Origin: an uncultured Gammaproteobacteria bacterium
GTDB taxonomy: Bacteria > Patescibacteriota > Patescibacteriia > UBA9934
Reading direction: 5' to 3'
Assembly (NCBI GenBank): GCA_964613815.1
Contig: CAZTKG010000004.1
Span: forward strand, 25,892-89,891
DNA length: 64,000 nucleotides
Positions 16,642-41,945 of the stretch are shown here, piece after piece; positions within the stretch are counted from its first letter, which is position 1; every line of letters starts with the position of its first letter. The translations under genes were made by a program, and so were the position numbers. The notes below the pieces were generated by a model that was not told where the DNA came from, made no database searches, and saw nothing but the letters and a program-made list of their open reading frames with translations.

Positions 16642-17110
16642 AAGCTGAAATCTGGAAAGAAAAACTTCTACCCAGAAACCAACCTACAGACAAAATTATA
16701 TCACACACGCCCCATCAAGCACCGATAACTACACACATTGACAAACAAGCAAAATTATGCCAATATATTTCAGATTCAAACAAAGGAATCTCGGAGCCTA
16801 TCATGCCCGCAAATCTCGAAAACATCTCCATCCGCACACACCATACAGCCGAATTAAACCACAGAGCATTCATTATCATAATGATGGCCATCCTGATGAC
16901 CGCCCTCATCGCACACCCACCGTTCACCGGCAAAGGAATTCCGCTCATGGCATGCGCTGCAATCTGCATCCTGAACTGCCTCAACTACGGATATCACAGA
17001 AGAGAGCTCAAAAAAGCCACCCCGGCCAACCATCCCGTCTAACTCGCCAACCAGCGAGTCATTTTTTTTCAAAACGCTTCTCAACTCTTCCACCCCTCCC
17101 CCTCTCTCTC

Positions 17111-17152
17111 CTTGATACAAAAGTGGTCCGTACGGACCACTTTTGTATCAAG
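17111..17152. repeat. 42-bp perfect palindrome CTTGATACAAAAGTGGTCCGTACGGACCACTTTTGTATCAAG
   Basis: Read directly; lies just 3' of the stop of the minus-strand gene 17172..19859. Confidence 0.9.
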
Positions 17153-17171
17153 CAAAATATCAAAATCCCAA

Positions 17172-19859
17172 CTAAGCCCCACCTTTCTGCAACCGCACAT
17201 CCACCGAAATCGGCGCCGGCTCCGTATTCGCCGTGTAATCAATCGGCCGCACTTCTTTCTTTGCAAACCCAGGCTTCTCAAACGTCACATAATACTCATT
17301 CGGCCCCACAAAAAACGCATACCGCCCTTTCTTATCAGACAACGTCGTCTCAATAAGCTTATTAAACTTCGGCTCAAACAACCGAACCACCGCATCCTTA
17401 ACCGGCTTCTTCTCCCCAGCCCAAACCATCCCCCACCCACGCTTCTGCTTCGGCCGAATCAAGTAAAACGTCACCCCCAAAACCCCAACCTGGAACCCAA
17501 ACAACAACTGTGTCACGAGCGTCGGATCAACAAACAACACAAATCCACTCAATCCCAATCCCGTCACCGAAACAACGTACTGAAGCACCCGCATAAACCG
17601 CTTCAAAGAAGCCTTCCGAGACCCAACGGCCCCCTCAACCTGCGCCGGATCAACAGGAATATTCGCCGCAATCACCGCATTCGCATCTGTCACCTCAACT
17701 TCTCCCCCATCATAAACATCCAAATACTGCCCATCCGCCTTCCGTCCCTTCACATACGCAGACGGCGAACGAAACCCTTGCTTCAAAACCTCCATCCGAT
17801 ACCGCCCATTATCAACCTTAAAGAAATACCGCCCCTCCTGATCTGTCACCATCGTTTTCACCAACTTCCCATCCGCGACATTAAACAACCGAACAATAGC
17901 CAAATCCACCGGCATCTTCGTCATCGAGTTGTACACGAGCCCAAACGTCTTCCGCTTCCGCCGAGCAAAAAACAAAATCGGTGACGTGAAGAAATATTGC
18001 AAAAATGGAAGCAATTGGAACGAACTCGTCAAAACAACCGCGCTCCCCACAGACGTCGCCACAACAACCGGCGTAGAAACCGTCGCCGCCACTTGAACCT
18101 CCGGCACCTCCCGAATCTCCTCAACAATCTGAGCCACATCATCAACAATTTCCTCAACAACCGCTACAGCAGCCTCCGGCACAATCACCTCCGCGATAGG
18201 CAAAGCCTCCGTAATCGCCTCAAAAACCGCCCCAACAACATCCTGCTCCACCATCTTAATCCGCGGCGCCAAAACCCCATGCGTCACCCGAATTTCAACC
18301 GAAGCATCATCAAAATCCACCTTCCCAGCCGTCACCCTATAAAGCCCATCAGGGACATACCAACCAACACCCCCACCAGAACTCGTCATCACAGGATTCG
18401 CTTGCCCATCAATCGCAACCCAAGGCGTCCAACTCCCGCCTTCATACACATATGCAATCACCGTAACCCCATCAAGCGGCTCCACCCCCTCTTCCCCATC
18501 AACATAAACAAGCCCTATCGAAGTTCGAATATCAAAATCCTCCGTCACCTGACGGCCATCATCAAACGCAACAACAACCTCCAAATCAAAACCAACATCA
18601 CCAATATCAATCGCCCCAACAAACGCCCCATCAACCTCCTCAAGCACAATCACCTCCCCGCCAGCCTCAACAACAGCCGAATCAACCTCATCCGCATCCT
18701 CCACCCGAACAACGACCTCAACCTCCCGCTCACCAAGAACATAAAAACTATCCCCCTCAGCATCAATAACGGCTTCACCAACAATCAAATCAACCCCTTC
18801 AATATCAACCCCATCAGAAGAACCACGAGATCCACCACCGTCAGACCCCCCAGATGATCCAGACGAACCTGAAGACCCTCCAGACGACCCACTCGACGAT
18901 CCAGACCCACTACTTCCACCCCCATCTCCGCTCCCACTATCACTACCAGACCCACCATCTGACCCCCCACCATCACCTCCGCCATCAGATCCACCAGAAT
19001 CCCCCCCACTTTCAGAACCTCCATCACTACCACCCCCCTCATCACCTCCACCCTCATCACCCGAATCGCCATCACCACCTTCATCAGAACCCTCACCATC
19101 ACCTTCTCCATCACCAGAATCCCCTTCATCCCCCGAATCACCTTCATCACCACTATCACCTTCTTCATCACCAGAATCATCACCAGAATCATCTCCAGAA
19201 TCATCACCATCACCACTATCACCATCCCCATCAGAATCACCGCCACCATCACCTCCTCCATCACCACCGACCCCACCTCCACCTCCGCCGCCACCGCTAG
19301 AAGGCACCGTAGCCGAAACCTGCCCATCATCATCACTCACCACAGGCACAGGTACCGTCCCAGAATCCCCAAAAGTCCCTGCCAACGCCAAATAATACGT
19401 CCCAATCGAAGAAGGATTCGTCACCTGATTCGACCCAGATCCGCTCGCCGTCGCATTCGCCCCAACCTCAATCGTCACCTCACTCGCAGCCGCCACCGCC
19501 CCACCGTCACCACTACACCAAGTCAGCGTCAGAACACTCGAAGCCATCACCACACTCACCGCCTCACTCCCGCTACAGTCCGCCGCCGTACTCAAATCCA
19601 CTCCATCGTCCGCCACATCAACATCATCCTCAACAACAGAACTCGTCGTAAATCCAGAAGGAAACGTCAACGTCAACGTCTCCCCTTCAGCAACCCCTCC
19701 AGGCGTCGTAAAAACAACCAAATGATTAGACCCCGTGCTCGTCTTAAGCGAACTCGGCCGATCATAAACACTCGTCACCGTCGCCGCCTCTACCCAAAAA
19801 CCGCTCATCGAAAAGCAAATGAGCAATGCAAAAATAAATGAAAACACCCTCCGCAACAT
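17172..19859 (-). CDS. large surface protein with Gly/Asp/Ser-rich low-complexity tract and carboxypeptidase-regulatory-like (transthyretin-fold) repeats
   Basis: Signal peptide. ~180-aa G/D/S/E low-complexity region. Three V-R-L-F-x...D-x-x-G-R-Y-x-F-x-V-x-x-G-x-Y repeats. Hydrophobic segments between them. Confidence 0.6.
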   Translation of the reverse strand: MLRRVFSFIFALLICFSMSGFWVEAATVTSVYDRPSSLKTSTGSNHLVVFTTPGGVAEGETLTLTFPSGFTTSSVVEDDVDVADDGVDLSTAADCSGSEAVSVVMASSVLTLTWCSGDGGAVAAASEVTIEVGANATASGSGSNQVTNPSSIGTYYLALAGTFGDSGTVPVPVVSDDDGQVSATVPSSGGGGGGGGVGGDGGGDGGGDSDGDGDSGDGDDSGDDSGDDSGDEEGDSGDEGDSGDEGDSGDGEGDGEGSDEGGDGDSGDEGGGDEGGGSDGGSESGGDSGGSDGGGDGGGSDGGSGSDSGSGDGGGSSGSGSSSGSSGGSSGSSGSSGGSDGGGSRGSSDGVDIEGVDLIVGEAVIDAEGDSFYVLGEREVEVVVRVEDADEVDSAVVEAGGEVIVLEEVDGAFVGAIDIGDVGFDLEVVVAFDDGRQVTEDFDIRTSIGLVYVDGEEGVEPLDGVTVIAYVYEGGSWTPWVAIDGQANPVMTSSGGGVGWYVPDGLYRVTAGKVDFDDASVEIRVTHGVLAPRIKMVEQDVVGAVFEAITEALPIAEVIVPEAAVAVVEEIVDDVAQIVEEIREVPEVQVAATVSTPVVVATSVGSAVVLTSSFQLLPFLQYFFTSPILFFARRKRKTFGLVYNSMTKMPVDLAIVRLFNVADGKLVKTMVTDQEGRYFFKVDNGRYRMEVLKQGFRSPSAYVKGRKADGQYLDVYDGGEVEVTDANAVIAANIPVDPAQVEGAVGSRKASLKRFMRVLQYVVSVTGLGLSGFVLFVDPTLVTQLLFGFQVGVLGVTFYLIRPKQKRGWGMVWAGEKKPVKDAVVRLFEPKFNKLIETTLSDKKGRYAFFVGPNEYYVTFEKPGFAKKEVRPIDYTANTEPAPISVDVRLQKGGA

Positions 19860-19868
19860 GAATCTCCG

Positions 19869-20861
19869 TTATCGAGATTGAAAAAAACGCACACAAACGA
19901 TCGATCCTCCAAGTAAAACACTAATCAAAAGCAGTACACGCCACGGCACCATCACAATATGAATGGCATCAATCGGCATCACCGCTCCATCAATCGATGT
20001 CCGCAAATCAGGCTTAACACGAAACAGCCCAATCATACCAAGAGAAACTTCTCGCTTCAGCCCATCAAAAAACCCATCAGGACTCCCAGAAGCCTCCCCC
20101 TGCACCCATTGTAATCCGAATTCCCTCTCACCTCCAGGCAGAACCCGATGCAAATGTGCATTAAATGGAAGCCGCGCCCGTTCCTGACCAAACAAATTCT
20201 CTATCACAATAGTCCCATAAGGCTGCAAAACCTGCTCCCCAGAATTCCTCACATCAAGCAAAATATCAACCGGCTTCACAGATGTCATCACAGGCGTTGC
20301 CAAAAACTCCGTCACACCATACCCCTGCACCAACCGTTCCCCATCAATCGTCAAAAACACAAGCGGCATCACCCCAGACTGCACCGTCACTCCCCCTCCT
20401 CGTTCTTCAAGCTCCTCCACAATCTTCACCCCAAATGAATAAACCCCAGGCTGAACCCCCTCAAAAGGCCCCATCGCAACCAAAACCTCCGTTTCCTCAC
20501 CAGGGTCAAGAAAAAAAGCTTCAGTAGAAATCAAAATCTGCTCCAAAACCCCCTCCGGAAACTCCCCATCCATCAAATCCCCCCCAGCCAAAACCTCCGC
20601 AGCATCCACCGGCACCAAAGAAACCGTATAAACCCGAGAATACACAGAATTATTAGCAACAAAAAAAGACCGCTCCGCCCCAAACCCCTCTTCAACCTCC
20701 ACATCCTCCACAAGCGGAGATGCCGTAACAGCAAAACAAACATTAAAACCTGCAAAAAACAAAAAACAACTACCAAGCATCACAACAATCCCCAAACCAA
20801 ATCGCTCCAAAAAAACTGACATAAACATGCAAAAAGTATAACACGCTACGCTCAAACACAT
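19869..20861 (-). CDS. hypothetical exported protein with C-terminal TM anchor (start uncertain)
   Basis: Hydrophobic N-terminus and C-terminal helix followed by a basic tail. Sits in the surface-protein block. Confidence 0.45.
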   Translation of the reverse strand: MCLSVACYTFCMFMSVFLERFGLGIVVMLGSCFLFFAGFNVCFAVTASPLVEDVEVEEGFGAERSFFVANNSVYSRVYTVSLVPVDAAEVLAGGDLMDGEFPEGVLEQILISTEAFFLDPGEETEVLVAMGPFEGVQPGVYSFGVKIVEELEERGGGVTVQSGVMPLVFLTIDGERLVQGYGVTEFLATPVMTSVKPVDILLDVRNSGEQVLQPYGTIVIENLFGQERARLPFNAHLHRVLPGGEREFGLQWVQGEASGSPDGFFDGLKREVSLGMIGLFRVKPDLRTSIDGAVMPIDAIHIVMVPWRVLLLISVLLGGSIVCVRFFQSR

Positions 20862-20902
20862 TGATACAAAAATGGTCCGTACGGATCACGCCTCATACAA
20901 AG
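20861..20902. repeat. degenerate copy of the 42-48 bp palindrome
   Basis: TTGATACAAAAATGGTCCGTACGGATCACG... keeps the left half-site; the right half is decayed. Confidence 0.6.
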
Positions 20903-20956
20903 AGAAACTTTTATAAAAAACAAAAACGGTAAATATTGGCAAATATTATGAATATC

Positions 20957-21004
20957 CTGCCTGATACAAAAGTGGTCCGTACGGACCACTTTTGTATCAG
21001 GCAG
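20957..21004. repeat. 48-bp perfect palindrome CTGCCTGATACAAAAGTGGTCCGTACGGACCACTTTTGTATCAGGCAG
   Basis: Read directly; shares the same 38-bp core as 17111-17152. Confidence 0.9.
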
Positions 21005-21041
21005 ACAACGTCTACCAACGCACCAAATGCTCAAAGATCAA

Positions 21042-21999: not shown

Positions 22000-22740
22000 G
22001 GTCAAAGAAATATTAAGCCAATCTTAGCCACAAATCGAACATTGTGGAAGCTTTCAAAACCCACAAAAAACAGATCAAATCCAAATCTGTGGATAAATAG
22101 CTCATTTTCCACACCAAAAACACACATCAAAAAACCGCATGACACCTCACCAAAAAAATGCCCAACCATGACCCGAAAAAAAGACAAATCACTGATCTGC
22201 CTCCTCAACCAACACAAAAACCACCCAGGCCTCAATCAAAAGAAGCGGAGAAAATTTCTCAAAACTCAAAAACCCAAATTTGTCTACGCAATTCTCGACA
22301 TTCATCACAAAAAAAAATACACGTCTCGTTCCTCACAACAAAAACACAAGTTCTCAATCACAAAAAAATAACAACCATTTTTTCCTCGCGAAACACATTC
22401 TGTAGATAACCTGTAAATAACCCTGTGAACTTCTTGTAGATACACACAATCAGTCCACACCCAAAAAAATCAAAAAACACCAATAAACCATCAATTTTCC
22501 ATCGATACTCACACCAAAACCACAACGTTATCCACCGAACCAACGATCATAAACCAATCAAAACAACCAAACCCAAACAGGGCAGGGCACCAAACCAAAA
22601 AAATCCACCCTCATCACAGTGGACAACTCCCCACTTCTCCACAGTCAATACACAAAACAACCATCAACAAAATCAAAACACCAAAAAAACGGCCCACAGC
22701 CGAAAAAATAATGTCTTCCAGTTACTTTTATCAAACACAG
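22000..22740. promoter_or_regulatory. ~0.75-kb non-coding A/C-rich tract with DnaA-box-like 9-mers
   Basis: No ORF with usable codon structure. Motifs CTGTGGATAAA, TTTTCCACACC, CTGTAGATAAC, GTTATCCACCG, AGTCCACACC, GTGGACAACT. Confidence 0.4.
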
Positions 22741-22770: not shown

Positions 22771-22892
22771 CCCAGAGAGGGTAAGTCGCTCTGTGGTGGT
22801 GATTCTTTTTAGAAACCGCAGTAAAACGTACTCATAGTACGTAGTCGAGGATTTCTAAAAAAATCGCCGCCACAGAGTGACTTGGCCCTCTC
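22771..22892 (-). ncRNA. 122-nt imperfect long hairpin in the tRNA-Arg(CCT) 3' trailer (copy 1 of 2)
   Basis: Gapless alignment to 37341-37462 with compensatory changes on both arms (details in findings). Confidence 0.55.
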
Positions 22893-22969
22893 TGGAGGCC
22901 TCGAAGGGGGTCGAACCCTTAACCTTGTCCTTAGGACGGACCTGCTCTATCCAATTGAGCTACGAGGCC
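22893..22969 (-). tRNA. tRNA-Arg (anticodon CCT), CCA encoded
   Basis: Manual fold: acceptor GGCCTCG/CGAGGCC, D-arm GCTC-AATTGGATA-GAGC, anticodon loop GTCCTAA, T-arm AAGGG-TTCGACC-CCCTT, discriminator T then CCA. Confidence 0.85.
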
Positions 22970-26080: not shown

Positions 26081-26146
26081 GCCAAGATGGTACCAAAACC
26101 AAGCCCCTCTTGACAAAACAACCAAAAAAACCTAAATTAACCCCTT

Positions 26147-26397
26147 CCATTTGCTCGTTCGACACCAGTCAACATCTGCGGACGCCCCGTCCCCAGAGAC
26201 GCCACCACCCAAAGCGTCAATCCGCTCTGCATATGCAACGATTGCTCAGATTTCATCAGAAATCAGAAAATCGCTGCATATGCACGACGTTCGTTTGCCC
26301 GAACCCCTCTTTCGGCACATACCTGCATCAAGATTCCCGCAAACGCACTCTAGATCAAACGAAATGGAACCCACCCCTAATAAAGGGGTAATTTTTA
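26147..26397 (+). ncRNA. small structured RNA unit A1 (family defined in findings)
   Basis: TTGACA 26110-15, 17 nt, TAAATT. 5' CCATTTGCTCGTT pairs with 3' AACGAAATGG (26358-67). Internal hairpin cTGC-GGACG-CCCC-GTCC-CCAGA. Terminator CCCCT..AGGGG plus T-run. Confidence 0.5.
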
Positions 26398-26433
26398 TTG
26401 ACAAATACAACCAAAACATCTAGAGTCCACTTT

Positions 26434-26648
26434 CCATTTGCTCGTTAGTCATCCGCTAACACTGCGGGCGCCTCGCCCCCAGAAAAAAGCATACCTGACA
26501 CGACCAGGCACGCTGCAAATATGCGACTTTTACCCGCTTCGCTCCAGTAAAAGTCGCATATTTGCCACTCAAGCTGCGCTCGAAGCCATCACGCAACTGT
26601 CATCAAGCGAAATGGAACTCACCCCCTAACGAAGGGGTATTTCTTTTT
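26434..26648 (+). ncRNA. small structured RNA unit A2
   Basis: TTGACA 26398-403, 17 nt, TAGAGT. 5' CCATTTGCTCGTT / 3' GCGAAATGG. Internal hairpin GGGCG-CCTC-GCCC and a perfect 19-bp stem GCAAATATGCGACTTTTAC/GTAAAAGTCGCATATTTGC. Terminator CCCCT-AACGA-AGGGG plus T-run. Confidence 0.5.
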
Positions 26649-26682
26649 GACAAATCCCCAAATTCCGCTAACCTAACCCCAT

Positions 26683-26937
26683 CAACTTGCTAGACGTCCT
26701 CGTCAACCTGCCCGCACCCCGCGGCCAGACCCAGACACACCCCCAAAGACCCCGAGTACAGAAAATCTCGCCTTAACGGAAATTTTGCTCCCAAACTCGC
26801 AAAATTATCCAACCAGTCAAGATTTTCTGCCGCTCCCGAGAGAAATCCGCCACTCGCCACAAGCGGCTTCACTCCGATTTCTCACGCTCCAAGTACCAAG
26901 CGAAGTTGACCCTCCCCGCCCAAAAGGCGGTTTTTCT
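26683..26937 (+). ncRNA. small structured RNA unit A3
   Basis: TTGACA 26647-52, TAACCT 26669-74. 5' CAACTTGCTAGACG / 3' AAGCGAAGTTG. Internal hairpin CCGCA-CCCC-GCGG-CCAGA. Terminator CCGCC-CAAAA-GGCGG plus T-run. Confidence 0.5.
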
Positions 26938-26941
26938 GTCC

Positions 26942-27024
26942 CATCTATCGCTCCGGCTCCGCCGAGCCCTATCGTCGAGCTCAGCTCGACCCTATCGTTC
27001 AGCTTTGCTGAATTCTATCACTCA
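26942..27024 (+). repeat. iteron-like direct repeats of (C/T)CTATCG spaced 23-28 bp, containing GGCTCCGCCGAGC
   Basis: Four CTATC(G/A) repeats. The same module recurs at 40001-40078 and partly at 40582-40640. Confidence 0.5.
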
Positions 27025-27035
27025 TGCTTAAAAGC

Positions 27036-27142
27036 TTGACAAATCACCCAAATTCCGCTAATCTCCCCCTCTGAATCAATCCCGATTCACCCCCGCTCCT
27101 TTCGCTTCGAATTGAGTACCACCCCGCGCAAAAGAGGCTATC
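27036..27142 (+). promoter_or_regulatory. promoter and leader of the RT gene
   Basis: TTGACAAATCACCCAAATTCCGCTAATCT is nearly identical to the unit A3 promoter TTGACAAATCCCCAAATTCCGCTAACCT. AAAGAGG RBS before ATG 27143. Confidence 0.55.
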
Positions 27143-28408
27143 ATGGCCAAGAAACCCCAAAAGGGACCCAAGCGCCCAGGTCAAAAAGGCTACAAGGACA
27201 ACAATTTCCAGTTGATCCTCGCCCTCCCGGCCCACTTCGCAGAGATGCTCCGCGAACTGCTTCACATCCATCAGTCCGACTGGGAAGTCCTCATGGACAT
27301 CCTCCGGCAAGGACACGAAGCCGCCTACAGAGAAGAAAAACGCCGAAAGGGCAACGGTGGCACACGCTACATCCATGCCCCCTGCGACACCCTCAAGGAC
27401 GTGCAGCGCAAGATCCTCAACCAGTTCCTCTCCCAGATCCCGATCCACTTCATTCGCTGGGGAGGCCGGAAGGGCAGCTCTGTCGTGAAGGCCGTCGACA
27501 ACGCCATCGGCGCTCGATACGCCTTCAGCATCGACATCATGAACGCCTTCCCGTCGGTCTTCCGAAGCCGAGTCCAGGCAGCCTTCATCGAGCCCGTACG
27601 CCACATGCTCCGCATGTACAAAGGTCTCGAGATATCCGAAGACGACATCAAAACCCTGGCCTACGCCCTCGCCGACCTCTGCATCCTCCACGACCGCCTC
27701 CCGCAGGGTCCACCTTCTTCGCCGCGAATCCTCGACATCGTCTCCTTCGGCATGGACCGCGACATCGGAGCCCTCGTCGGAGAGTACCGCACCCCCATCA
27801 ACAAGATGCATGCGTTCATCTGGGTCGACGACATCAACATCGTCAGCCACGAACCCATCCCAAAAATCGTGCAGGAAAAGCTGAAGGCAATCATCAGAAA
27901 GTACAAGTTCATGCCACACCACCGTCCTGGCAAGTGCGACTACTTCTCTGTCGAAACCGGCAGGTTCCCAATCCTCCTCGGGATCAACATCTTCACCGGA
28001 ACCCTCGCGCCCAAAACGGTCAGACGCTTCCGCAGCAAGCTCAACTGGCTTCTCAAGCAGAACACCTGGGGCGTCAAACAACTCCAAACGGCAGCCGGCA
28101 TCGTTGCCTACCTCGACCAGATCTACCCATCAACCGGTCGTCGTCGCAAGCGTCTTCCTTCAGCTCTCCGAGTCCTCGTCCCCCGCACTCGCGCCCGCAT
28201 CAAGGCCGAACGCGCCGGCGACCCGGTGACCATCAACATCACCGAAGTCGTCGAAGAGCTCCTCGCCGAAAAAGAAGAAAAAAACGGTCAGACCGGACGC
28301 AAGATCATCGACACCATCGTCCACGACGCCTCCGCAACCGGAGACCCCGACCACGACATCGAGATCCGCATCGCACTCGCTCAAGAGGCGCTCGCCGAAG
28401 CAAGCTGA
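27143..28408 (+). CDS. reverse transcriptase (stand-alone, retron-like fingers/palm; unusual V-D-D motif C)
   Basis: G-G-T-R-Y-I-H-A-P-C-D-T-L-K-D-V-Q-R-K-I-L (retron-like motifs 1-2), F-S-I-D-I-M-N-A-F-P-S-V (motif A), L-P-Q-G-P-P-S-S-P-R-I-L (motif B'), F-I-W-V-D-D-I-N-I-V (motif C), L-L-G-I-N-I-F-T-G-T downstream. Confidence 0.8.
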   Translation: MAKKPQKGPKRPGQKGYKDNNFQLILALPAHFAEMLRELLHIHQSDWEVLMDILRQGHEAAYREEKRRKGNGGTRYIHAPCDTLKDVQRKILNQFLSQIPIHFIRWGGRKGSSVVKAVDNAIGARYAFSIDIMNAFPSVFRSRVQAAFIEPVRHMLRMYKGLEISEDDIKTLAYALADLCILHDRLPQGPPSSPRILDIVSFGMDRDIGALVGEYRTPINKMHAFIWVDDINIVSHEPIPKIVQEKLKAIIRKYKFMPHHRPGKCDYFSVETGRFPILLGINIFTGTLAPKTVRRFRSKLNWLLKQNTWGVKQLQTAAGIVAYLDQIYPSTGRRRKRLPSALRVLVPRTRARIKAERAGDPVTINITEVVEELLAEKEEKNGQTGRKIIDTIVHDASATGDPDHDIEIRIALAQEALAEAS

Positions 28409-28823
28409 TCTCCTCAATCTCACCCTGTCGCTCGCCTACCTACCGAAAGGTAGAAGCAGCGACAGGGGATCCTATCTCGCCCTTCACCCAAAAGTGGAGA
28501 TCGAGTACGATCGAAACCTTCCCTGCAGTTTGCTTGAAAATCGGTCACCAAAAGACATTACGCGCCTAGCGTCATGCCGACCAATCACCCAAGACGACTA
28601 AGCCTCGCTGACAAAGACAAGCTTTGTCAGACGCGGTCAGGTACTCCGGTGAACAATGGGGGACGCGAGCTTCCCAATACGCCCACCTCCATACCTGACA
28701 GCGCTACCTCGTCAGTCGAAACTGCACCTTCCGGAAGTCCAACCAACTTCCGGGTTCTTATATCGCCCTTCTCCAAGCAGAAGGTCGGCAAAGGAACACC
28801 GAACATTTCATCAGGAGCACCCA

Positions 28824-29936
28824 ATGCTACAAGTCCGCGCCGTCGAAACAAACGGCAACATCACCTGGGAATTCCTCGACGAATCCCAAAGACGCTACTA
28901 CTTCGCCGAACTCGACGAACCATCCCATGACGCAGCCCCCACCCCAGATCACATCCCAAAACAACGATTCAACGACGGCGACATCTGGAACGCCGAGATC
29001 GTCCGCGCTGTAAGAGAAGGTCGCGACCGAGTCGCCTACATCCGACTCATCTCCCAAGTCCGAGACCTCTCACCCTGGGAATCCATCACCGAACTCCCTG
29101 GCTTCTGGACCGACCCAGACATGCTCAAGTCCGTCCTCGCTCTCTTCCATCTCAAAGCCTGCGTCCTCCTCAAAGGCTCAAAGGGAAGAGGAAAAACGAC
29201 CTTCATCTTCATGGTCGCCGAGCAGCTCGGCTGGCAGCACCCGTGCAAAGTCGACATGGCCGCCATCAAACGCGCCACCGACATCGCCGGCCAAAACGCC
29301 GCCAAGAAGGGAAGTACCCTCTTCCAGGGCTCCGAACTGTTCCACTTCCTCAAGCGGGCAGAAGCCGCCCACAAAGCAGGCCTCCTAGACACCTTCCCAG
29401 TCCTCCTCGACGAAATCGGCCGCGTCCACGCCAAAGCAACCGGCGCGCTCCACGGCCTGTTCGACGACACCCGCATGATCACGCTCACGACCGCAGAAGG
29501 CAGCATCACCTTCCGCATCCCCCCAAACGTCGTCATGATCGGCACGGCCAATATGGGATACGCCGGCAACTTCGAAGTCGACGAGGCACTCAAAGATCGC
29601 TTCATCGCGATCAACATGCCTCGCATCCCCACCGAAGAAGTGGCCAAGATCCTTATCGCAGAAGCCGGCATCACGCAACAACAAGCCCTCGACATCGCCC
29701 GCATGGGAGAAATCCTCGAGGACCTCTCTCGTCACGCCATCAGCTTCGCACCAAGTCTACGCGCACTCAAAGTCCTCGCCCAAATGGTCGCTCTCGGCTT
29801 CAACATGAAACAAGCCGCCTTCACCTGCCTCACCGGCTGGCTCGAAGGTGAGATCACCGACCACAGCTCAGAAGCCGGCAAAGCCTGGGTCGCCATCACC
29901 ACAAAGGCATCCGTCGACCCCGACGACGAAGAATAA
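28824..29936 (+). CDS. MoxR-like AAA+ ATPase (AAA_5/CbbQ/NorQ-like)
   Basis: CAGGAGCACCCA-ATG at 28824. Walker A L-L-K-G-S-K-G-R-G-K-T-T, Walker B V-L-L-D-E-I-G, sensor-1 I-G-T-A-N-M, Arg-finger region A-L-K-D-R-F. The upstream part of the 426-aa track ORF lacks an RBS. Confidence 0.75.
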   Translation: MLQVRAVETNGNITWEFLDESQRRYYFAELDEPSHDAAPTPDHIPKQRFNDGDIWNAEIVRAVREGRDRVAYIRLISQVRDLSPWESITELPGFWTDPDMLKSVLALFHLKACVLLKGSKGRGKTTFIFMVAEQLGWQHPCKVDMAAIKRATDIAGQNAAKKGSTLFQGSELFHFLKRAEAAHKAGLLDTFPVLLDEIGRVHAKATGALHGLFDDTRMITLTTAEGSITFRIPPNVVMIGTANMGYAGNFEVDEALKDRFIAINMPRIPTEEVAKILIAEAGITQQQALDIARMGEILEDLSRHAISFAPSLRALKVLAQMVALGFNMKQAAFTCLTGWLEGEITDHSSEAGKAWVAITTKASVDPDDEE

Positions 29937-29984
29937 CCCAACCTCCAGCAGAATCTCTGCTGGCTCATATCCTGAGCTCGATAC

Positions 29985-31440
29985 ACCACATCGAACCCAG
30001 GCCACGAGCAAATTGCTAGAACCTCTTCAAGAGACGGTCGCTAACCTTCTTGCGCCTCGCATCAAGTAGACCATTCACCCAACTCGACCAGCCCGGTCCA
30101 TCACGCCACTCTCAAGCGACGTGATCCCCGGATCGATACCATCCTACGTCAGGTATCGATTTCGACACCTCAGATTTCAATTACACACTTCCGGCTTCCA
30201 GCCTCCGTCGCGAAATCAAAATCAGAGGTGTCAAAACTATCGATCTCATTCGAATTTGCTTTTCACATCTTAACGGTTTGCTAGACTCCCAAAAGGGAAG
30301 GCCCCTCATCCGCACGCGCTTCGCGTCCGGTAGGCCAGTCACCCCTCGTGACCACGCATGACAGAAATCTGTCATGTCCTGTCATGTTGCTACTCACTCA
30401 TCGTTGAATGAGCAACATAATAACTTCCTCGCTCGCCACAACATGACAGAACCGAGCACGACAAGCGAAACCGTCCTAAACCACGCAACCTAAACACCGT
30501 GGTTTACCACGTCGCTCGCGCAGCGACGTGGCTCTTATCCCGCCCCTGAACCTCTCAGAGTCGGGAACCGAGTAAACTGCTAGAACCTCTCATCGGAGAG
30601 TCGGTCATTCATCTTCTTGCACCCAGCATTAAGTAGACCATTCACCCAGCTCGTCAAGCCCGGCCTCATCACGTCGCTCAAGAGCAACGCGACGAGGTCA
30701 TAACGTCACGACGTCACGATACCGTTACGGTAACGTCACGGTAACGTCACGTCATCAGAGGCCGTCGCCGAGTAACATCAACGCGCCGTAACGTCACCGT
30801 GACGTTACCGCAACGGCACTGTCGAGCTCTTACGAGTTTACTTCCTAGCGACTTGCTAGACACCCCGAAAGGGAAGGCCCCCTCATCCGCACGCGCCTCG
30901 CGTCCGGTAGGCCAGTCACCCCCAGAGGCCATGCCAGGGACAAACAAGTATGTCCCTGCTGGTCCCCTATCGCATTCGTCAGATGCATGGCGAACACGCT
31001 ATCACATCATGACTCACCGCGACAGGGACAAGCCAAGGCCATCCAGCGAAGTCGTTCCACCGTCGCCCACGCGACACCCTCCGGAGAATTCTCCGGGCTC
31101 TTATTCCGCCTCTGACCCAATCAGAGACGGAACATGGGCAAACTGCTAGAACCTTCTCGCAAGAGAAACGGCCATCAATCTTTCTGCGCCGTGCACCAAG
31201 TAGGCCATTCACCCGACTCGACCAACCCGGTCCTCCGGAAATGTCGGGAAACCCGATGCATTTTTACACGAGCTCGCGCGATATCGCGCGACCTTCCCTC
31301 CACTCGTTCGCGCGATATCGCGCGATCTAGCGCAAACAACGGGTCCTCACGAGTTTGCCACGCCAGAGGCCAAGCCTCTGGATTCTTCTATCGAGCTCCT
31401 CCCCGAGAAGCCCGACAAAAGAATCCCTAGCCCTTTCAAA
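29985..31440 (+). repeat. structured non-coding spacer: three diverged tandem composite units (modules E-C-var-D-var) plus perfect palindromes
   Basis: C modules 30010-30099, 30574-30665, 31139-31234 begin AAA(T/C)TGCTAGAACC. D modules 30278-30345 and 30852-30922 begin TTGCTAGAC. E modules 30530-30568 and 31095-31133. Palindromes GTAACGTCAC-c-GTGACGTTAC at 30788-30808 and TCGCGCGATATCGCGCGA at 31274-31291 and 31308-31325. Confidence 0.7.
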
Positions 31441-31451
31441 AGGAACCCAAA

Positions 31452-33269
31452 ATGCCCCTCTCTCCAACCGAAATCGCCCGCTCCCGCGCCATCCTCACCG
31501 CCATCTTCCCAGAACTCGTGAGCATCCTCCTCGCCATCACCGGAAGACCCGTCAAACTTGTCTGGGACCCCAACATCAGCACCGCAGCAACAGACTGCAA
31601 AGCAATTGTCTGGGCCAGCCCAAATCCATTCCTAAACGGATTCCCCGACGTTGGCAGAGGATCCACCATTCACGAAGGCGGCCACATCAAATGGTCACGC
31701 TTCGGCTCCCGTCTCATGCGCCAAGCCAAAGAAGAGGGAGGAGAAGGCCTCAGCCACCTCCTCAACCTCATCATGGACCGCCGAGACGACACCCTGAACG
31801 CAGACCATAACCCCGGCATAGCAACCTGCCTCCGCGCCCGCCTCGCCTACCTCTGCACCATGCAACACCGCCTCATGATGAAAGCCGCGGTGGACAGAGT
31901 CATGGCTCGCGAAGAAAAAAAACGATCATCGCCGTCACCACGCGCGATCAGAATCGCCGAACTTCGCAAAAAAAGAGACATGGACCCACGCGAAGTAGAC
32001 ACCCCTCGCCTCGAAGGCCGCGAAGCCGAAGACAAAATCACCAAACTCCTCTCCGGCGTAAAGCCAAAGGACGCTTGGGAAGACTTCTTCTTTGCCTGCA
32101 AGTGGCACAAAGGCGCCAGAACCCGCCGAGGCCGTAAAGCCATCAACATCATCGGCACCCAGCGCCTCCTCAAGGCAACCCCAGGTCAACTCCTCGGCCT
32201 CGCCAAACGCGTCCACACCATCCTCGGTGACCGCCCAAGCGAGCAAAAAACTCCACCACCCAAAGGATTCCAAAACCTCATCACAATCGCTCGCGCGATC
32301 GAACGAGGCGACAAAGAATCCATGGCAGCCCTACGCGCCATCGACCCCGACATGCACGCCGCAGTCATCCTGCTGCACACCATGGACCCAGGCATCGCCA
32401 AACTGCTCGGCAAGATGGCCAAACAGCATACGGCAAAGTCACGCGCAACCGGCATGGAGAAACTCAAAAAAATTCTCCAAACCGGATTCCGCCACCCAGG
32501 CCCAATCTCCATCGGAGACCCCGGAAAGGTCAAGGTCATAGAGCTTCCTCACAACGAAATTCACCGAGCAACGCACCGAGCTGTTCTCGCCGAAGTCGCA
32601 CATCTCAAAGACCAACTCGTCCGCACTCTCAGAAAACTCGACTCTCCAAGTGAATTCACGCTCTACGCCCAAGACGAAGGCGACGAACTCGACTTTGACG
32701 AAGTGGCCTCCATGGCATGCGGACTCGGCGGCAACTGGCAAGAAACCGTCATAGAACGCGACATCGACGCCCTCATCGCCATCGCAGCAGATATCAGCGG
32801 CTCCATGGGAGGAGAAAAACTCAGAGCGCTCCGAAGACTTCACGCCCTCCTCACAGAAGGCATCGAAGTTCTCGGCGACAGCGCAGAAGGCTACGCCTGG
32901 GCGTATCACTCACAGACCATCTTCGACCTCGGTCGCACCGCCCCAACAAGCGCCTTCCACACGCTCAAAGCAGACTACGGCAACTCTGACACCACCATGC
33001 TCACCATCGCCGGCACCCGCATGGCCATGTCCAAACGTCGCCAAAAAATCCTCTTCGTCATCACCGACAACGGCCCAGACAACATCCAGACAGCAGGGGA
33101 GAGAGCAAGACAACTCCTCGCAAGAGGCGTCCTCGTCATCCACATCATGGTAGACGTCCACGGCATCCCCGACATCTACCCAATCGAACTCCCATACGTC
33201 TCCATAGACGACCTCATAAACGGCGAGTTCAACAAACTCCTCACCCTCATCTTCAAACACTTGAAGTAA
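31452..33269 (+). CDS. two-domain protein: N-terminal HExxH (zincin-like) region plus C-terminal von Willebrand factor A domain
   Basis: I-H-E-G-G-H-I-K-W near the N-terminus. vWA MIDAS D-I-S-G-S-M-G-G-E then F-V-I-T-D-N-G. Terminator ATCCACGCACAACGTGGAT+T7 at 33270-33297. Confidence 0.7.
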   Translation: MPLSPTEIARSRAILTAIFPELVSILLAITGRPVKLVWDPNISTAATDCKAIVWASPNPFLNGFPDVGRGSTIHEGGHIKWSRFGSRLMRQAKEEGGEGLSHLLNLIMDRRDDTLNADHNPGIATCLRARLAYLCTMQHRLMMKAAVDRVMAREEKKRSSPSPRAIRIAELRKKRDMDPREVDTPRLEGREAEDKITKLLSGVKPKDAWEDFFFACKWHKGARTRRGRKAINIIGTQRLLKATPGQLLGLAKRVHTILGDRPSEQKTPPPKGFQNLITIARAIERGDKESMAALRAIDPDMHAAVILLHTMDPGIAKLLGKMAKQHTAKSRATGMEKLKKILQTGFRHPGPISIGDPGKVKVIELPHNEIHRATHRAVLAEVAHLKDQLVRTLRKLDSPSEFTLYAQDEGDELDFDEVASMACGLGGNWQETVIERDIDALIAIAADISGSMGGEKLRALRRLHALLTEGIEVLGDSAEGYAWAYHSQTIFDLGRTAPTSAFHTLKADYGNSDTTMLTIAGTRMAMSKRRQKILFVITDNGPDNIQTAGERARQLLARGVLVIHIMVDVHGIPDIYPIELPYVSIDDLINGEFNKLLTLIFKHLK

Positions 33270-33413
33270 TCCACGCACAACGTGGATCTTTTTTTAAACC
33301 AGCGAACAAATATCCATTCCCATTTCGACCAACGCGGAGAAATCTCTCTCAATAACAACATATAAATTAAACCAATCACTTGACAAAACAACCAAACCAT
33401 GCTAAATTCCCTC

Positions 33414-33650
33414 AGTGCTACGTGGCCCGACCACACCTCTTCTCGCGCCTCGCGACAAGTTTACGCACAACCTAAGCGGACCAAGCCTGGCGCTTGCGCG
33501 TCTCATGAGTTTGTCGCACTACGTCGCGACCGCACTTCATGACGCCCTTCGCCCATCATTGCGGACAGCTCTTATCCCTACGGGGACCTGTCCGCAACGT
33601 ACGCTCAATCTCAACGCCCGCCGTGCATGCACGGCGGGCGCCTTTGATTT
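33414..33650 (+). ncRNA. small structured RNA unit F (same family, variant ends)
   Basis: TTGACA 33379-84, 17 nt, TAAATT 33402-07. Internal hairpin cTTCTCGCG-CCTC-GCGAcAAG matching the family motif. Terminator CGCCCGCCGTGCATGCACGGCGGGCG plus T-rich tail. Confidence 0.5.
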
Positions 33651-33773
33651 AACAAACATTTCCACCCTCCCCCATCTCGACCCCGTGGAGAGATCTTGCA
33701 GCCCTGTCACATTCAAATTACGACAAAATTAAAATGGAGACGTCTCATTTTCTAAACAATTTCTCTAACGTTT

Positions 33774-36966: not shown

Positions 36967-37197
36967 ACGCTAGCACAAATAGCCAATCTTGGCAAGAATA
37001 CAACAAAATCGAGTACAATCTACTTGACCACACGCAATTCACCTGCTAATATCCCACAGCTCATTACTCTTTCTGTCCCTCTGGCGTCAGTACCTCTACA
37101 GAGGGACAGGCTCCCACAACCCCCCAAGGCATGACGCTGCCAAAGGGGGTTATTTTTTTCCAAACGAAAAAGACTTCTCTTACAAGAAGTCTTTTTC

Positions 37198-37273
37198 TGG
37201 GGCGACTAGAGGGAATCGAACCCTCACTAGGGGCACCACAAACCCCTGTGCTAACCGTTACACCATAGCCGCC
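37198..37273 (-). tRNA. tRNA-His (anticodon GTG) with encoded G-1 and CCA
   Basis: Manual fold: G-1, acceptor GCGGCTA/TAGTCGC (one G-U), anticodon loop TTGTGGT, T-arm GAGGG-TTCGATT-CCCTC, discriminator C, CCA. Terminator hairpin follows at ~37155-37195. Confidence 0.8.
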
Positions 37274-37340: not shown

Positions 37341-37462
37341 GCCAGAAGGGGTAAGTTGCTGTGTGGTGGTGATTCTTTTGTACAACCGCAGTAAGACGTA
37401 CACATAGTACGTAGTCGAGGATTGTACAAAAAATCTCCGCCACACAGCAACTTGGCCCCTTC
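37341..37462 (-). ncRNA. 122-nt long hairpin in the tRNA-Arg(TCT) 3' trailer (copy 2 of 2)
   Basis: Collinear with 22771-22892. Arms differ from copy 1 at paired positions. Confidence 0.55.
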
Positions 37463-37539
37463 TGGTGCACCTGGCAGGACTTGAACCTGCAACCTTGAGG
37501 TTAGAACCCTCCTGCTCTATCCAATTGAGCTACAGGTGC
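37463..37539 (-). tRNA. tRNA-Arg (anticodon TCT), CCA encoded
   Basis: Manual fold: acceptor GCACCTG/CAGGTGC, anticodon loop GTTCTAA, T-arm GCAGG-TTCAAGT-CCTGC, discriminator A, CCA. Confidence 0.85.
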
Positions 37540-37662
37540 TCATTGCGTGCAGCAAATATACATGAATTAACCAAATAAATCAACCCTACTCACCCAAAAT
37601 CACCCTCAACTTGAGACTGACAAAAATAAAACGACTTCCATCCATCCAATCACCTGCAACAC

Positions 37663-38595: not shown

Positions 38596-39036
38596 TAATC
38601 AAAACTTCAATACCAACATTATACGACACAAAACTACCACCTCCTAATTCCCATCCTGAGGCGCGCCAGCCCTAGCGCGCCGGAAGGATCTCACAGCAAA
38701 ACCATCGAATATTAGCCAAATAAGTCAAAAACACCCAACATCTGCCAATCATCACTTGACAAAAACCAAAAAACAAGCTAGTCTATAGAGTCAGTATCAA
38801 AATTCCTCACAAGCAAGCTAGAGAAAAATCCCATGCATGTTTTTCTCCAGCTCACTCATCAAAAGGGAATATCAATATTCCCATCCCCTCAAAGGAAATC
38901 ATTTCGAATGATGTCTTCTAAGGGGATCACGTTCGACACCAACAACGGGCCCGTCCAGCCCAAAAAAACAAAATCACCGCAAGGAGGTGACAGGACAAGC
39001 ACGACGAATTTACATTCCACAACCCAAGGAGTAGGA

Positions 39037-39408
39037 ATGTCTCGTCGCGATGCCCGGTGCCAGGGCCAATGGCACACAATCACCGTCAACGTGATCAACA
39101 TCCCACGCGAGGGAGGGAGAATGATCGTTACGCAAGAGCAGAGGTCAATTTGCACCTGCTGGCTCTGCGAAGACCATTTCTACCTCACCGGATGTCCAAT
39201 CCTTCGTCCAACCATGCATGCCAAGAAGAAGCCGTTCACCACGGCCGAATCCAAAGCGCGCATCGGAGACGAGAACGGATTCATCCCAACCCCGCAAACC
39301 CCCCGCGTCCGAACGCCAAGCGCAGAGCTCAAACTCAAGCGCAGGCGCAAAGAACGCGGATCAGATCGCCGCTATCACCGCCAGTGGCTCCTCTCCCAGC
39401 GAGACTAG
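39037..39408 (+). CDS. small Cys-rich protein (possible zinc ribbon); start may instead be ATG ~38908
   Basis: AGGAG 6 nt before ATG 39037. C-x-G-x-W-H...C-T-C-W-L-C-E-D-H...C-P cysteines. Consensus promoter TTGACAAAAACCAAAAAA at ~38757 with a ~250-nt leader. Confidence 0.4.
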   Translation: MSRRDARCQGQWHTITVNVINIPREGGRMIVTQEQRSICTCWLCEDHFYLTGCPILRPTMHAKKKPFTTAESKARIGDENGFIPTPQTPRVRTPSAELKLKRRRKERGSDRRYHRQWLLSQRD

Positions 39409-39483
39409 CAGCGATCCGTCCCCTCGGCTAACACCGAGGGGTTTCGCTTTACAAAAAACCAAAAAATCGCTAATATCATCACC

Positions 39484-39744
39484 TCGATTTGCTAGATCAA
39501 AAAACCTGGTCCCTTCCCGCGCCCCGTGGCAAGACCCTCAAACACACCAATCGACCCCGACATAGACATTCACGAGACCAAAACTCTCGACAAGCTCAAC
39601 TTTTGGTCCCTAAAATCTCTATTCAAATCTCACTGTGACGAGCTCTCACGCCGTGACCACGGCACTCGAGATCGTGCAAACGATATTTGACTCTGGTCAA
39701 CAAGCGAAATCGAGCTTCAACCCTCACAAGGTTGCTTTTTTTTG
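39484..39744 (+). ncRNA. small structured RNA unit B1
   Basis: TTTACA 39448-53, 17 nt, TAATAT. 5' TCGATTTGCTAGATC / 3' AAGCGAAATCGA (39702-13). Internal hairpin cTTCCCGCG-CCC-CGTGG-CAAGA. Terminator CAACC-CTCAC-AAGGTTG + T8. Confidence 0.5.
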
Positions 39745-39766
39745 ATCGAAATGCTAATTTTGCCCT

Positions 39767-40000
39767 TCGATTTGCTAACCGCCGCTGGCCCCGGCACTCT
39801 CGTATCGACATACTAGATAAATCGATATGCCTCCCCGCGCCCCGCGGCGAGAAAAGCGAACACCCTACCAGATCAGGGGAAAGTTCTTCGATCCTTTCCG
39901 AAACCGTTCCGCGATGCTGACCACCTACGGCACTCACCAGCACAGAACGTTCCCAAGCCTCAAGCGAAATCGAGCATCAACCCAATCGGGTTGCTTTTTT
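39767..40000 (+). ncRNA. small structured RNA unit B2 (weak promoter)
   Basis: 5' TCGATTTGCTAACC / 3' AAGCGAAATCGA (39962-73). Internal hairpin cTCCCCGCG-CCC-CGCGG-CGAGA. Terminator CAACCCAATCGGGTTG+T6. Confidence 0.45.
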
Positions 40001-40137
40001 CTATCGCCCGGCTCCGCCGCGCCCCTGTCGTCGAACTCAACTCGACCCTATCGTTCAGCCTCTGAACCCTATCGCCCAAAACCTCCATCATCAACATCAC
40101 CATTGACGCATTTCACCATTACTGCTAAATTCACCCC

Positions 40138-40559
40138 TCGATTTGCTAGATCGACACCCTTCGATCCCTCTCCGCGCCTCGCGGCGAGACCCCGAAATAC
40201 ACGGACAGACCAAACCCCGTACACAAAAGGACAAACTCTACGCGTTAGTCCTTTCATGTACGGCCCGAGTCGCGCACAGACCTATCGTTACCGATTCTAC
40301 GGTCAATGCGCGCCTTCCGGTACTAGTATCAAGCGAAATCGAGCCCTTACAGCTTGTTAGATGTAAACCGCATCACCTCCCGCGCCCCGCGGCAGGACCA
40401 GCGCACACACCGCGCGACCAGGATTGCCCATAAATGGGAAAGTCCCGAAACTGACGAGTTTATGTCACCCGCCTTCGGCAAACTCCAGAAACTCGATCAG
40501 TTTCGGCACTCAAGCCCTTCATCGAAGCTGTACCCCCTCGCAAATGCGAGGATTTTTAA
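40138..40559 (+). ncRNA. small structured RNA unit B3 plus a degenerate promoter-less half (B3b)
   Basis: TTGACG 40103-08, 17 nt, TAAATT. 5' TCGATTTGCTAGATCGAC, internal cTCTCCGCG-CCTC-GCGG-CGAGA, 3' AAGCGAAATCGA 40331-42. Second internal hairpin cTCCCGCG-CCC-CGCGG-CAGGA at ~40375. Terminator CCTCGCAAATGCGAGG+ATTTTT at 40535-59. Confidence 0.45.
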
Positions 40560-40682
40560 TATGCCGGGGGCATATTAACCCTTCGTAGCTCGGCTCCGCC
40601 GAGCGAAGAACGGGTAATCATCGCAAAACTCTATCACCCCCTCCATTGACACGTAACCCAATCCACTCCAAACTAAATCCAT

Positions 40683-40960
40683 TCGATTTGCTCTCAGTTG
40701 CTAACTGCAACCGCCACGCTTCTTAGTCCGGAATAAGCAGCGATCGTCCTCGCGCCCCGCGAAGACAGGCACCTACACAAAACGCCAATGCCGAAAGCAT
40801 TGCTCCAATGCGCGCATTGGTTCAATTATTTCGCACAAACGAACACTCAACTGACAGAATCGCATGCCACAAAACCATACGACACCTGTCAGTCAAGCGT
40901 CAGTTTGACCAAGGGCAACAAGCGAAATCGAACCTCAACCCCAACGGGTTGACTTTTTTT
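40683..40960 (+). ncRNA. small structured RNA unit B4
   Basis: TTGACA 40646-51 with a weak -10. 5' TCGATTTGCTCTC, internal gTCCTCGCG-CCC-CGCGA-AGACA, 3' AAGCGAAATCGA 40920-31. Terminator CAACCCCAACGGGTTG+T7. Confidence 0.45.
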
Positions 40961-40983
40961 CACCAAACCGCTATATTCACCTC

Positions 40984-41264
40984 TCGATTTGCTCCCCCGT
41001 TGCTAGCTACAACCGCTACGCCACTCAGTCTAGAATGAGTAGCAAAAGATCCTCGCGCACTGCGAAGACAGAGCAACCCACATCAAAAGTCCATGGCACT
41101 AAATCCGTGTAGCCAATTCTTGTCTCAACTGATTTAGTTGCTTTCTACGCCCGAATGAATGCATCAGTCGCTCAAATACCGCCAAATGCATTTACATCCC
41201 AGTCGCAGAAAGCACAGGACCAACAAGCGAAATCGAGCCTCAGTCCTCACGGGCTATTTTTTCT
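40984..41264 (+). ncRNA. small structured RNA unit B5
   Basis: TTGACT 40949-54, 17 nt, TATATT. 5' TCGATTTGCTCCC, internal TCCTCGCGC-ACT-GCGAAGACA, 3' AAGCGAAATCGA 41224-35. T-run at 41258-64. Confidence 0.45.
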
Positions 41265-41299
41265 TGACAAAAAACCAAAAAAACACTAACCTAACCTCT

Positions 41300-41551: not shown

Positions 41552-41609
41552 CAAAACAAATCACCCCACCCCATTGACAAAACACAAAAACCATACTATC
41601 TTAACCACC

Positions 41610-41850: not shown

Positions 41851-41945
41851 ATCCCATAAACCATCTTTCACCTCTTAAAAGCATTTTTGTTATTCATTGA
41901 CAAATACAAACAATTAAACTAGTATTAGCAATTGTTCATTCATCA

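Follow-up and report, generated by a model that had tools for sequence, protein, structure and literature searches.

The object of this analysis is a 122-nt imperfect palindrome that stands twice in a 64-kb stretch of a Patescibacteria genome (hereafter, the window), each time straight after the encoded CCA of a tRNA-Arg gene. The reading that we favor, to which we give about an even chance, is that it represents a previously undescribed family of transcribed 120-140-bp imperfect-palindrome repeats of Uhrbacteria and related Patescibacteria, nested in tRNA units and similar in kind to ERIC, REPIN, and Correia elements. Its presence among relatives was patchy, one copy was located away from any tRNA gene (L016), another followed a tRNA-Leu gene (L048), and the two window copies were closely alike; thus, the element behaves as small palindromic repeats do. 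The closest homologues of the RmuC and XerC proteins of the window are named Candidatus Uhrbacteria or Patescibacteria, and, judged by sequence, the host is a Candidatus Uhrbacteria (Patescibacteria) bacterium.

Two copies of the element form long hairpins with compensatory changes

The copy after tRNA-Arg(CCT), named w1, and the copy between tRNA-Arg(TCT) and tRNA-His, named w2, were folded as RNA together with the preceding CCA, on the minus strand. Each gave one long imperfect hairpin, with a minimum free energy of -69.3 kcal/mol for w1 and -72.1 kcal/mol for w2, against about -30 and -33 kcal/mol in dinucleotide shuffles; the z-scores were -11.1 and -10.8, and none of 200 shuffles folded as well. 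With parameters for single-stranded DNA, the z-scores of the elements ranged from -9 to -13, and the plus strand, antisense to the tRNA, was predicted to be the stronger folder (-79.7 kcal/mol for w1 and -78.1 kcal/mol for w2). The outer stem took in the encoded CCA, which paired with the terminal TGG, CCAGAGAGGG/CCCTCTCTGG in one copy versus CCAGAAGGGG/CCCCTTCTGG in the other.

The alignment of w1 and w2 was free of gaps over 124 nt and contained 20 differences (83.9% identity). Sixteen of these made up eight double compensatory pairs, the other four fell in unpaired or mismatch columns, and no pair was broken; by comparison, when 20 substitutions were drawn at random, not one of 20,000 such sets spared every pair. 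The apical stem ACGTAC/GTACGT was kept in both copies, and the apex ACGTAC-N5-GTACGT with its flanks had two exact matches in the window, each within an element. The similarity ended at the 3' end of the hairpin. Together with the tRNA, the element constituted a 195-nt direct repeat, 78% identical, whose copies are 14,570 nt apart. The first-pass annotation of this DNA had described the hairpin behind both tRNA-Arg genes, its start at the encoded CCA, the compensatory changes, the conserved apex, the place of the second copy ahead of tRNA-His, and direct repeats of about 200 bp at a distance of 14.5 kb, and all of this was borne out; a small correction is that the arm sequences quoted there (GTCGCTCTGTGG/CCACAGAGTGAC) are spelled as the plus strand.

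When the window was searched with Rfam 15, only the three tRNAs reached the gathering threshold, and no match to the element was found. A permissive Rfam search of both loci returned only generic miRNA-precursor hairpin models, at 14-35 bits versus thresholds of 52-114, and no Rfam match overlapped the elements of three related loci described below (L001, L007, and L011).

The element in related genomes

About 100 related loci were gathered by means of the widely conserved tRNA-Arg(CCT)-rmuC pairing, among them 6 from a scan of genome contigs for RmuC and 80 from a scan of metagenomes with an RmuC alignment, and they were read over about 10-20 kb per locus. The first-pass annotation had proposed looking for the element 3' of tRNA-Arg in relatives, and there it was found in several of them: an imperfect hairpin of 125-140 nt and like build came directly after the CCA of tRNA-Arg(CCT) in L001/L013, L002/L003, L007, and L011, placed in the last between tRNA-Arg and tRNA-Ala. 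In a more distant Patescibacterium (L048, RmuC 51% identical), the element followed tRNA-Leu(CAA). Other assemblies of the same species (L004-L006) carried identical copies of the window element; an exact-pattern scan of metagenome contigs with the window-type core, a collection that does not include the L004-L006 copies, gave no match. At L001, a degenerate second copy lay about 130 nt downstream of the first.

Two covariance models were built, a full-length one trained on seven copies (R1) and one of the core (R2). R1 recovered its seven training copies at 71-121 bits, and it also found a copy that was absent from the training set, that of L016, at 28.4 bits (E = 2e-4). This copy was located between the polA stop and the holA start, on the strand opposite to both genes and with no tRNA nearby; for comparison with an empty site, no DNA-level relative of this region was found among the loci. 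Over about 0.95 Mb of related DNA, no additional copy was detected by either R1 or R2.

In the model-guided alignment of the seven copies, which come from five genomes, 25 of the 31 pairs had changed on both sides. Paired cells amounted to 82.3%, versus 37-49% when the partners were slid by 1-3 columns, and none of 500 shuffles reached the observed values. Almost no sequence of the outer stems was common to different genomes. Conservation was seen at the apex, which in a core alignment of 10 elements was a hairpin of 6-8 bp with a loop of 3-6 nt. In the window, read as the tRNA-sense strand, ...GCGTTG...CTCGAC precedes this hairpin and (C)TTACT...CTCGTCG-GCGCCT follows it. The two window copies were 84% identical to each other, and orthologous copies elsewhere matched them in the core only, which points to a recent copying or conversion event as the probable source of the window pair. 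The two copies in the genome of L001 (L001 and L099) were unlike each other.

The L099 copy is one of two, with L093, that occupy the spacer between tRNA-Arg(TCT) and tRNA-His as a hairpin of 130-140 nt. These two hairpins were orthologous, with 25 identical pairs, five double changes, four wobble changes, and no broken pair, and their tRNA-sense strand was predicted to fold better than the complement (-45.5 vs. -21.8 kcal/mol in L093, -53.9 vs. -46.7 kcal/mol in L099). By eye and with R2, their cores resembled the element inverted, so that they may represent it in flipped orientation; we regard this membership as tentative because the independent R1 score was merely 2.4-3.5 bits (E about 0.6-1).

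Many equally close relatives had no element. In L008, L009, L014, L015, L019/L024, and L093-L096, only a short hairpin, often a terminator, followed tRNA-Arg(CCT) at 0-2 nt past the CCA, and in L095, L096, L100, and L101 the gap between tRNA-Arg and tRNA-His was 2 nt. Since close relatives do without it, the element is dispensable for the maturation of these tRNAs. The functional RNA structure proposed in the first-pass annotation therefore held up in part: the constraint on the structure was confirmed by the eight double changes in the window and the covarying pairs of the family, and the idea of a general or required trailer or processing signal of tRNA-Arg did not stand, the element being missing in so many close relatives.

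A descriptive survey showed that the terminator hairpins of Patescibacteria tRNAs start 0-2 nt past the encoded CCA and often pair with it (CCA...TGG), as at L036 5700-5775, L047 5135-5210, L029 516-591, and window 37165-37196. Since hairpins that abut the CCA are common after tRNAs in this group, the element occupies the usual position of a terminator.

Probable transcription and the strand on which selection may act

The features of both loci are collected in Table 1. The hairpin after tRNA-His was not called by the terminator scanner because it has too few G-C pairs; its layout recurs after many Patescibacteria tRNAs. Consensus scans found no promoter-like site on the plus strand reading into either window element. 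From this arrangement, both elements appear to lie within tRNA transcription units, and we infer that they are co-transcribed with the tRNA.

Table 1. Features of the two element loci (positions in the window).
Feature	Position	Strand	Evidence or remark
tRNA-Arg(CCT), encoded CCA	22893..22969	-	ARAGORN; Rfam tRNA 56.6 bits
Element copy 1 (w1), 122-nt imperfect palindrome straight after CCA	22771..22892	-	Sequence, RNA fold, covariance model R1 100.9 bits
Apical hairpin of copy 1, ACGTAC-N5-GTACGT	22826..22842	-	Flanks CTCGACT and TTTACTG on the tRNA-sense strand
Terminator-like hairpin and T-run, about 70 nt past copy 1; the tRNA-Arg(CCT)-element transcript probably ends here	22690..22702	-	Consensus scan
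Promoter-like site TTGATT-17-TATATT, about 15 nt upstream of tRNA-Arg(TCT)	37555..37583	-	Consensus match only
tRNA-Arg(TCT), encoded CCA	37463..37539	-	ARAGORN; Rfam tRNA 65.6 bits
Element copy 2 (w2), 122-nt imperfect palindrome between tRNA-Arg(TCT) and tRNA-His	37341..37462	-	Sequence, RNA fold, covariance model R1 104.7 bits
Apical hairpin of copy 2, conserved	37396..37412	-	Sequence and exact-match search
tRNA-His(GTG), 68 nt 3' of copy 2, same orientation	37198..37272	-	ARAGORN; Rfam
Hairpin AAAAAGACTTCT-TGTAAG-AGAAGTCTTTTT directly after tRNA-His CCA; probable terminator of the tRNA-Arg(TCT)-element-tRNA-His unit	37165..37196	-	Read from sequence

A palindrome covaries alike on both strands; therefore, the covariation alone is no proof of function as RNA. 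Positions with G.T or A.C are informative in this respect. In the copies whose CTCGAC strand is tRNA-sense, 22 such positions favored that strand and 16 the other, and in the flipped copies L016, L093, and L099, 2 favored the CTCGAC strand and 12 the other. The wobble positions thus tended to favor the transcribed strand (Fisher p = 0.010, unchanged after related copies were collapsed), a pattern that leans toward selection on the transcript. We also considered whether the antisense strand is the functional one by its G.U pairs. This was true of w1, but the wobble counts of all elements, 24 vs. 28, favor no fixed strand, and the idea was discarded.

Relation to known repeats and trailer RNAs

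The MITE-like repeats of bacteria, about 100-200 bp in size, are transcribed into long stem-loops; among them, Correia transcripts are cut by RNase III, ERIC is a co-transcribed element of 127 bp, and RPE-type elements have also been found fused to RNA genes (PMC2229807). The element resembles ERIC (IRU) in being an imperfect palindrome of about 125 bp, here 122-140 nt, in intergenic DNA that is transcribed, or presumably so in the present case. Long stem-loop transcripts, predicted here, occurrence in either orientation, a patchy distribution among related genomes, and the lack of a known transposase are further points of likeness. It differs from ERIC in the host phylum, in a very low copy number in the DNA examined, in being bound almost exclusively to tRNA 3' ends at the CCA, and in its termini, which do not show the TA of ERIC. 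In addition, the ERIC2 core AAGTAAGTGACTGGGGTGAGCG had no match in the window with up to 3 mismatches. The evolution of ERIC is reportedly constrained by RNA structure, as Wilson and Sharp are said to have found in 2006. With the Correia/NEMIS, RUP, and RPE elements, the palindrome shares a size of 100-200 bp, probable co-transcription with its neighbors, and a long hairpin; unlike Correia/NEMIS and other MITEs, it sits at the tRNA CCA and has neither family-wide terminal inverted repeats nor a TA target duplication; an IHF site or promoter features were not noticed in it either, no search aimed at these having been made. Inverted repeats at its ends are trivial, the whole element being palindromic, and do not qualify it as a MITE.

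REPINs consist of two highly conserved inverted REPs at the ends and a spacer that forms the hairpin, and compensatory changes are frequent in them (PMC3116915); the REP superfamilies are short stem-loops, at one end of which stands an unpaired tetranucleotide, GTAG or CGTC (PMC3733652). The present element likewise has a long hairpin with covarying arms and, within it, a small one that is REP-like and has a short tag on its 5' side: on the plus strand, its apex is a stem of 6-8 bp with a loop of 3-6 nt, preceded by GTAA(G). Moreover, RAYT and classical REPs occur in the same syntenic region of two relatives. Genes for RAYT-type Y1 transposases were found there between holA and polA (L095 14314-14806, minus strand, frameshifted; L096 13024-13500, minus strand), flanked by inverted classical REPs, GTAGGGGCGACC-TTTA-GGTCGCCC, and by this evidence REP/RAYT systems exist in the Uhrbacteria candidate phylum. 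The apical stem of L001 and L002, CGACC-N4-5-GGTCG, is the stem of these REPs. R1 and R2 gave no match on the RAYT-bearing loci.

The differences from REPINs are nevertheless considerable. The only REP-like hairpin of the element forms its apex, whereas a REPIN carries a conserved REP at either end, and the ends of the element are almost unshared between genomes. The tag before the apical hairpin was GTAA in w1, w2, L001, and L016, and GAAA, CTAA, ATAA, CAAA, or GCAA in the others; GTAG or CGTC was found in none of ten elements. In the window and the element-bearing loci, no RAYT is linked to it, and in the DNA examined its copies do not number in the hundreds.

Trailer RNAs of tRNA transcripts are another class to be compared. 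In the tRNA-pre-miRNA chimeras of the herpesvirus MHV68, a tRNA-like part is directly followed by long hairpins. The element resembles these, and 3'ETS-leuZ of E. coli, in lying immediately 3' of a tRNA on what is probably the same transcript, and position is the only respect in which it fits the class. It differs in being dispensable in close relatives and in having one copy outside any tRNA unit, and a stable product, a target, or a partner protein would be hypothetical in its case. Collectively, the comparison suggests that, by sequence and by defining features, the element belongs to none of the ERIC, REPIN, and Correia families.

Proposed behavior of the repeat and competing explanations

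Under the favored reading, the repeat would live in tRNA transcription units, usually starting at the encoded CCA, and it would have been copied or homogenized between the two tRNA-Arg loci of this genome, with degenerate copies left behind. It would be transcribed with the tRNA and fold on itself into a long hairpin. Selection would preserve the pairing of the arms, the probable benefit being an insert that does not disturb the folding of the tRNA and is open to removal by cleavage. Likely enzymes for this step would be an RNase specific for double strands, for example RNase III, together with those that form the tRNA 3' end and, at the tRNA that follows, RNase P. The element itself would not be needed for tRNA maturation.

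Several observations weigh against a repeat family of this kind. When the window and the loci that bear the element were searched with tblastn, no homologue of Y1/RAYT was found, which leaves no transposase tied to the element, and the RAYT genes of the relatives L095 and L096 are bordered by GTAGGGGCGACC-type REPs and not by the element. No target-site duplication flanked any copy, the left flank being always CCA and the right flanks unrelated. High copy number is a hallmark of repeat families, yet the 64 kb of the window gave only 2 copies, and the related loci, roughly 0.95 Mb in all, gave about ten elements. The wobble counts are low, and of the three flipped copies that enter them, L093 and L099 are tentative members. 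In 8 of the 10 elements, irrespective of the direction of transcription, the strand reading GTAAG-hairpin-GTCGAG was the better predicted folder, for which a transcribed repeat offers no account; the better energy arises mostly because the unpaired positions are purine-rich on this strand and pyrimidine-rich on the other. Finally, the place after tRNA-Arg(CCT) and the hairpin are kept where RmuC is only 68-76% identical, and the non-palindromic loop motifs are conserved too, both of which fit a function for the host as well or better.

Such a function would be that of a dedicated RNA, either a processing or insulator hairpin that sets the tRNA 3' end or a stable RNA of about 125 nt, freed by the tRNA-processing enzymes in the manner of a 3'ETS-derived small RNA. 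Because place, shape, and loop motifs are kept over considerable divergence, we treat a trailer RNA function as a serious rival, even if on balance we think it rather improbable. Position and structure persisted across diverged genomes with 25 of 31 pairs covarying, unpaired motifs were conserved, and the element lies inside tRNA units of a lineage in which a hairpin 0-2 nt past the CCA, or including it, is a habit. The spacer hairpins of L093 and L099 argue in the same direction, with a tRNA-sense strand that is much the better folder and pairs kept through five double and four wobble changes. Nonetheless, an element that many close relatives replace with a 2-nt gap or a short hairpin cannot be required, L016 is a good member outside any tRNA unit and antisense to its neighbors, the non-transcribed strand folds better in most tRNA-linked copies, and the window copies look recently copied and not anciently paralogous. 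The usual place of a terminator raises the further idea of an oversized intrinsic terminator of the tRNA gene. Relatives without the element do have a terminator hairpin at the same spot, starting at the CCA, and the L001 element is followed by TTTTGTTGT, but neither window copy has a T-run after it, separate terminators come further downstream, and w2 and the L011 copy precede another tRNA gene in the same unit, so this explanation is very improbable.

The remaining explanations see the palindrome as DNA that moves or recombines. We consider it unlikely that the element is a mobile DNA of the REP/REPIN type, i.e., a single-stranded hairpin bound at its apex by an HUH/Y1 transposase (RAYT or IS200/IS605-like) and inserted 3' of the CCA. 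Its REP-like apex, the stem that L001 and L002 have in common with the REPs of L095 and L096, its variable presence among relatives, and the frequency of compensatory changes in REPIN hairpins (PMC3116915) are consistent with this idea. In its own orientation, the element stood nearly always directly 3' of CCA, and for the tentative flipped copies L093 and L099, which may belong to the same pattern, the empty site is the palindrome CCA/TGG; this adjacency could be a target rule or a by-product of living beside tRNAs. On the other hand, the window and the element-bearing loci are without a Y1 transposase, the REPs of the relatives differ, the tag is not GTAG/CGTC (PMC3733652), the apex is the conserved part and not the ends as in REPINs, the copy number is low in the DNA examined, and the wobbles follow the transcribed strand instead of one fixed strand of the element. 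A new kind of element specific for tRNA ends has a slim chance as well: it would be a mobile hairpin whose precise site of integration is the CCA end of tRNA genes in single-stranded form, so that in its own orientation it always lies 3' of a CCA, or a bacterial tRNA-hairpin chimeric precursor from which the tRNA-processing enzymes release a long double-stranded RNA with a role of its own, recognized via the conserved CTCGAC/CTTAC loop motifs. Least probable of all, and hardly credible, is a recombination or attachment site of a XerC-type recombinase (att-, dif-, or attC-like), or a driver of rearrangement of the 14.5-kb segment. The first-pass annotation had pointed to the XerC-type gene beside w2, tRNA 3' ends are classical integration sites, and gene order and orientation around both loci differ among relatives. 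However, a XerC-type gene stands beside tRNA-Arg(TCT)/tRNA-His in L093, L095, L096, L099, and L100, with or without the element, and the link to the recombinase was not sustained; w1 is beside rmuC instead. No partial tRNA duplication occurred at the element, and on inspection of both strands its ends showed no attC R''/R' cores (RYYYAAC ... GTTRRRY) or dif-like arms, the window having two isolated copies and no array. Moreover, housekeeping genes in conserved order (rmuC, rpsT, holA, and polA) fill the stretch that separates the copies, and the last three of them had been named in the first-pass annotation. A phage origin was also considered and rejected, with no sign of the element in viral contigs: a degenerate core pattern gave two chance matches there, in high-GC coding DNA with no tRNA nearby.

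Patescibacteria are episymbiotic, genome-reduced organisms whose genomes are very small and dense and for which hardly any non-coding element has been described; here, a structure-conserved element of about 125 nt, absent from Rfam, persists in tRNA operons, with its start exactly at the CCA. Were it a selfish repeat, palindromic repeats would survive extreme genome reduction hidden in tRNA transcripts, and this would be a clean case of an insertion kept harmless by selection at the RNA level. A functional trailer RNA would indicate an unusual route of tRNA 3'-end or spacer processing in this radiation. The covariance model can be used to annotate such elements, and it guards against taking covariation automatically as the mark of a dedicated RNA gene.

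Genomic surroundings and minor observations

The neighbors of the elements in the window are housekeeping genes, namely rmuC, rpsT, holA, polA, a NUDIX gene, and the XerC-type recombinase gene. In Pfam scans of about 30 window proteins, no gene with a specific link to the element was found, whether for a transposase, a reverse transcriptase, or another product. In one relative, a 22-nt duplicate of the tRNA-His 3' end was found 185 nt from the real end, beside a XerC-like gene (L102 2296-2500), and this looks like a scar of integration or excision.

Over its whole length (1-64000), the window showed an extreme and uniform strand skew, with a GC skew of about -0.32 (locally to -0.55) and an AT skew of +0.25, and with genes on both strands; in syntenic relatives, the skew was merely -0.05 to -0.13. 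About 7.6 kb between holA and polA (26100-33750) are missing in relatives, which have RNase HII and sometimes RAYT there instead. This segment contains a gene for a MoxR/CbbQ-like AAA ATPase, two large open reading frames (ORFs) with no Pfam match, and several local repeat families (30021-31336). In the window, a homologue of RNase HII was not detected. An 895-aa ORF with long acidic Gly/Asp/Ser low-complexity repeats was found at 17172-19859 on the minus strand; its position is kept in relatives as a large ORF with no Pfam match.

At 38750-42300 on the plus strand, and also at 26100-26700, there were at least 8 tandem units of about 300 nt each. Every unit begins with a sigma70-like promoter of its own, TTGACAAAAAACCAAAAAA...TAACCT, and contains a 5' module that is conserved, CCTCGATTTGCTAGATCGACC...CCCGCGCCCCGCGGCAAGACCC, followed by a variable middle and a conserved 3' module made up of AACAAGCGAAATCGARC, a G+C hairpin, and a T-run. 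The units had no Rfam match. Their 5' TCGATTTGCT is complementary to the 3' AGCGAAATCGA, which suggests a family of structured RNAs of about 250 nt with a closing helix. Lastly, a near-perfect palindrome of about 40 nt, TGATACAAAAGTGGTCCGTACGGACCACTTTTGTATCA, was present in three copies just past ORF stops (17107-17160, 20857-20903, and 20952-21005), possibly as a bidirectional terminator or a second small repeat family.

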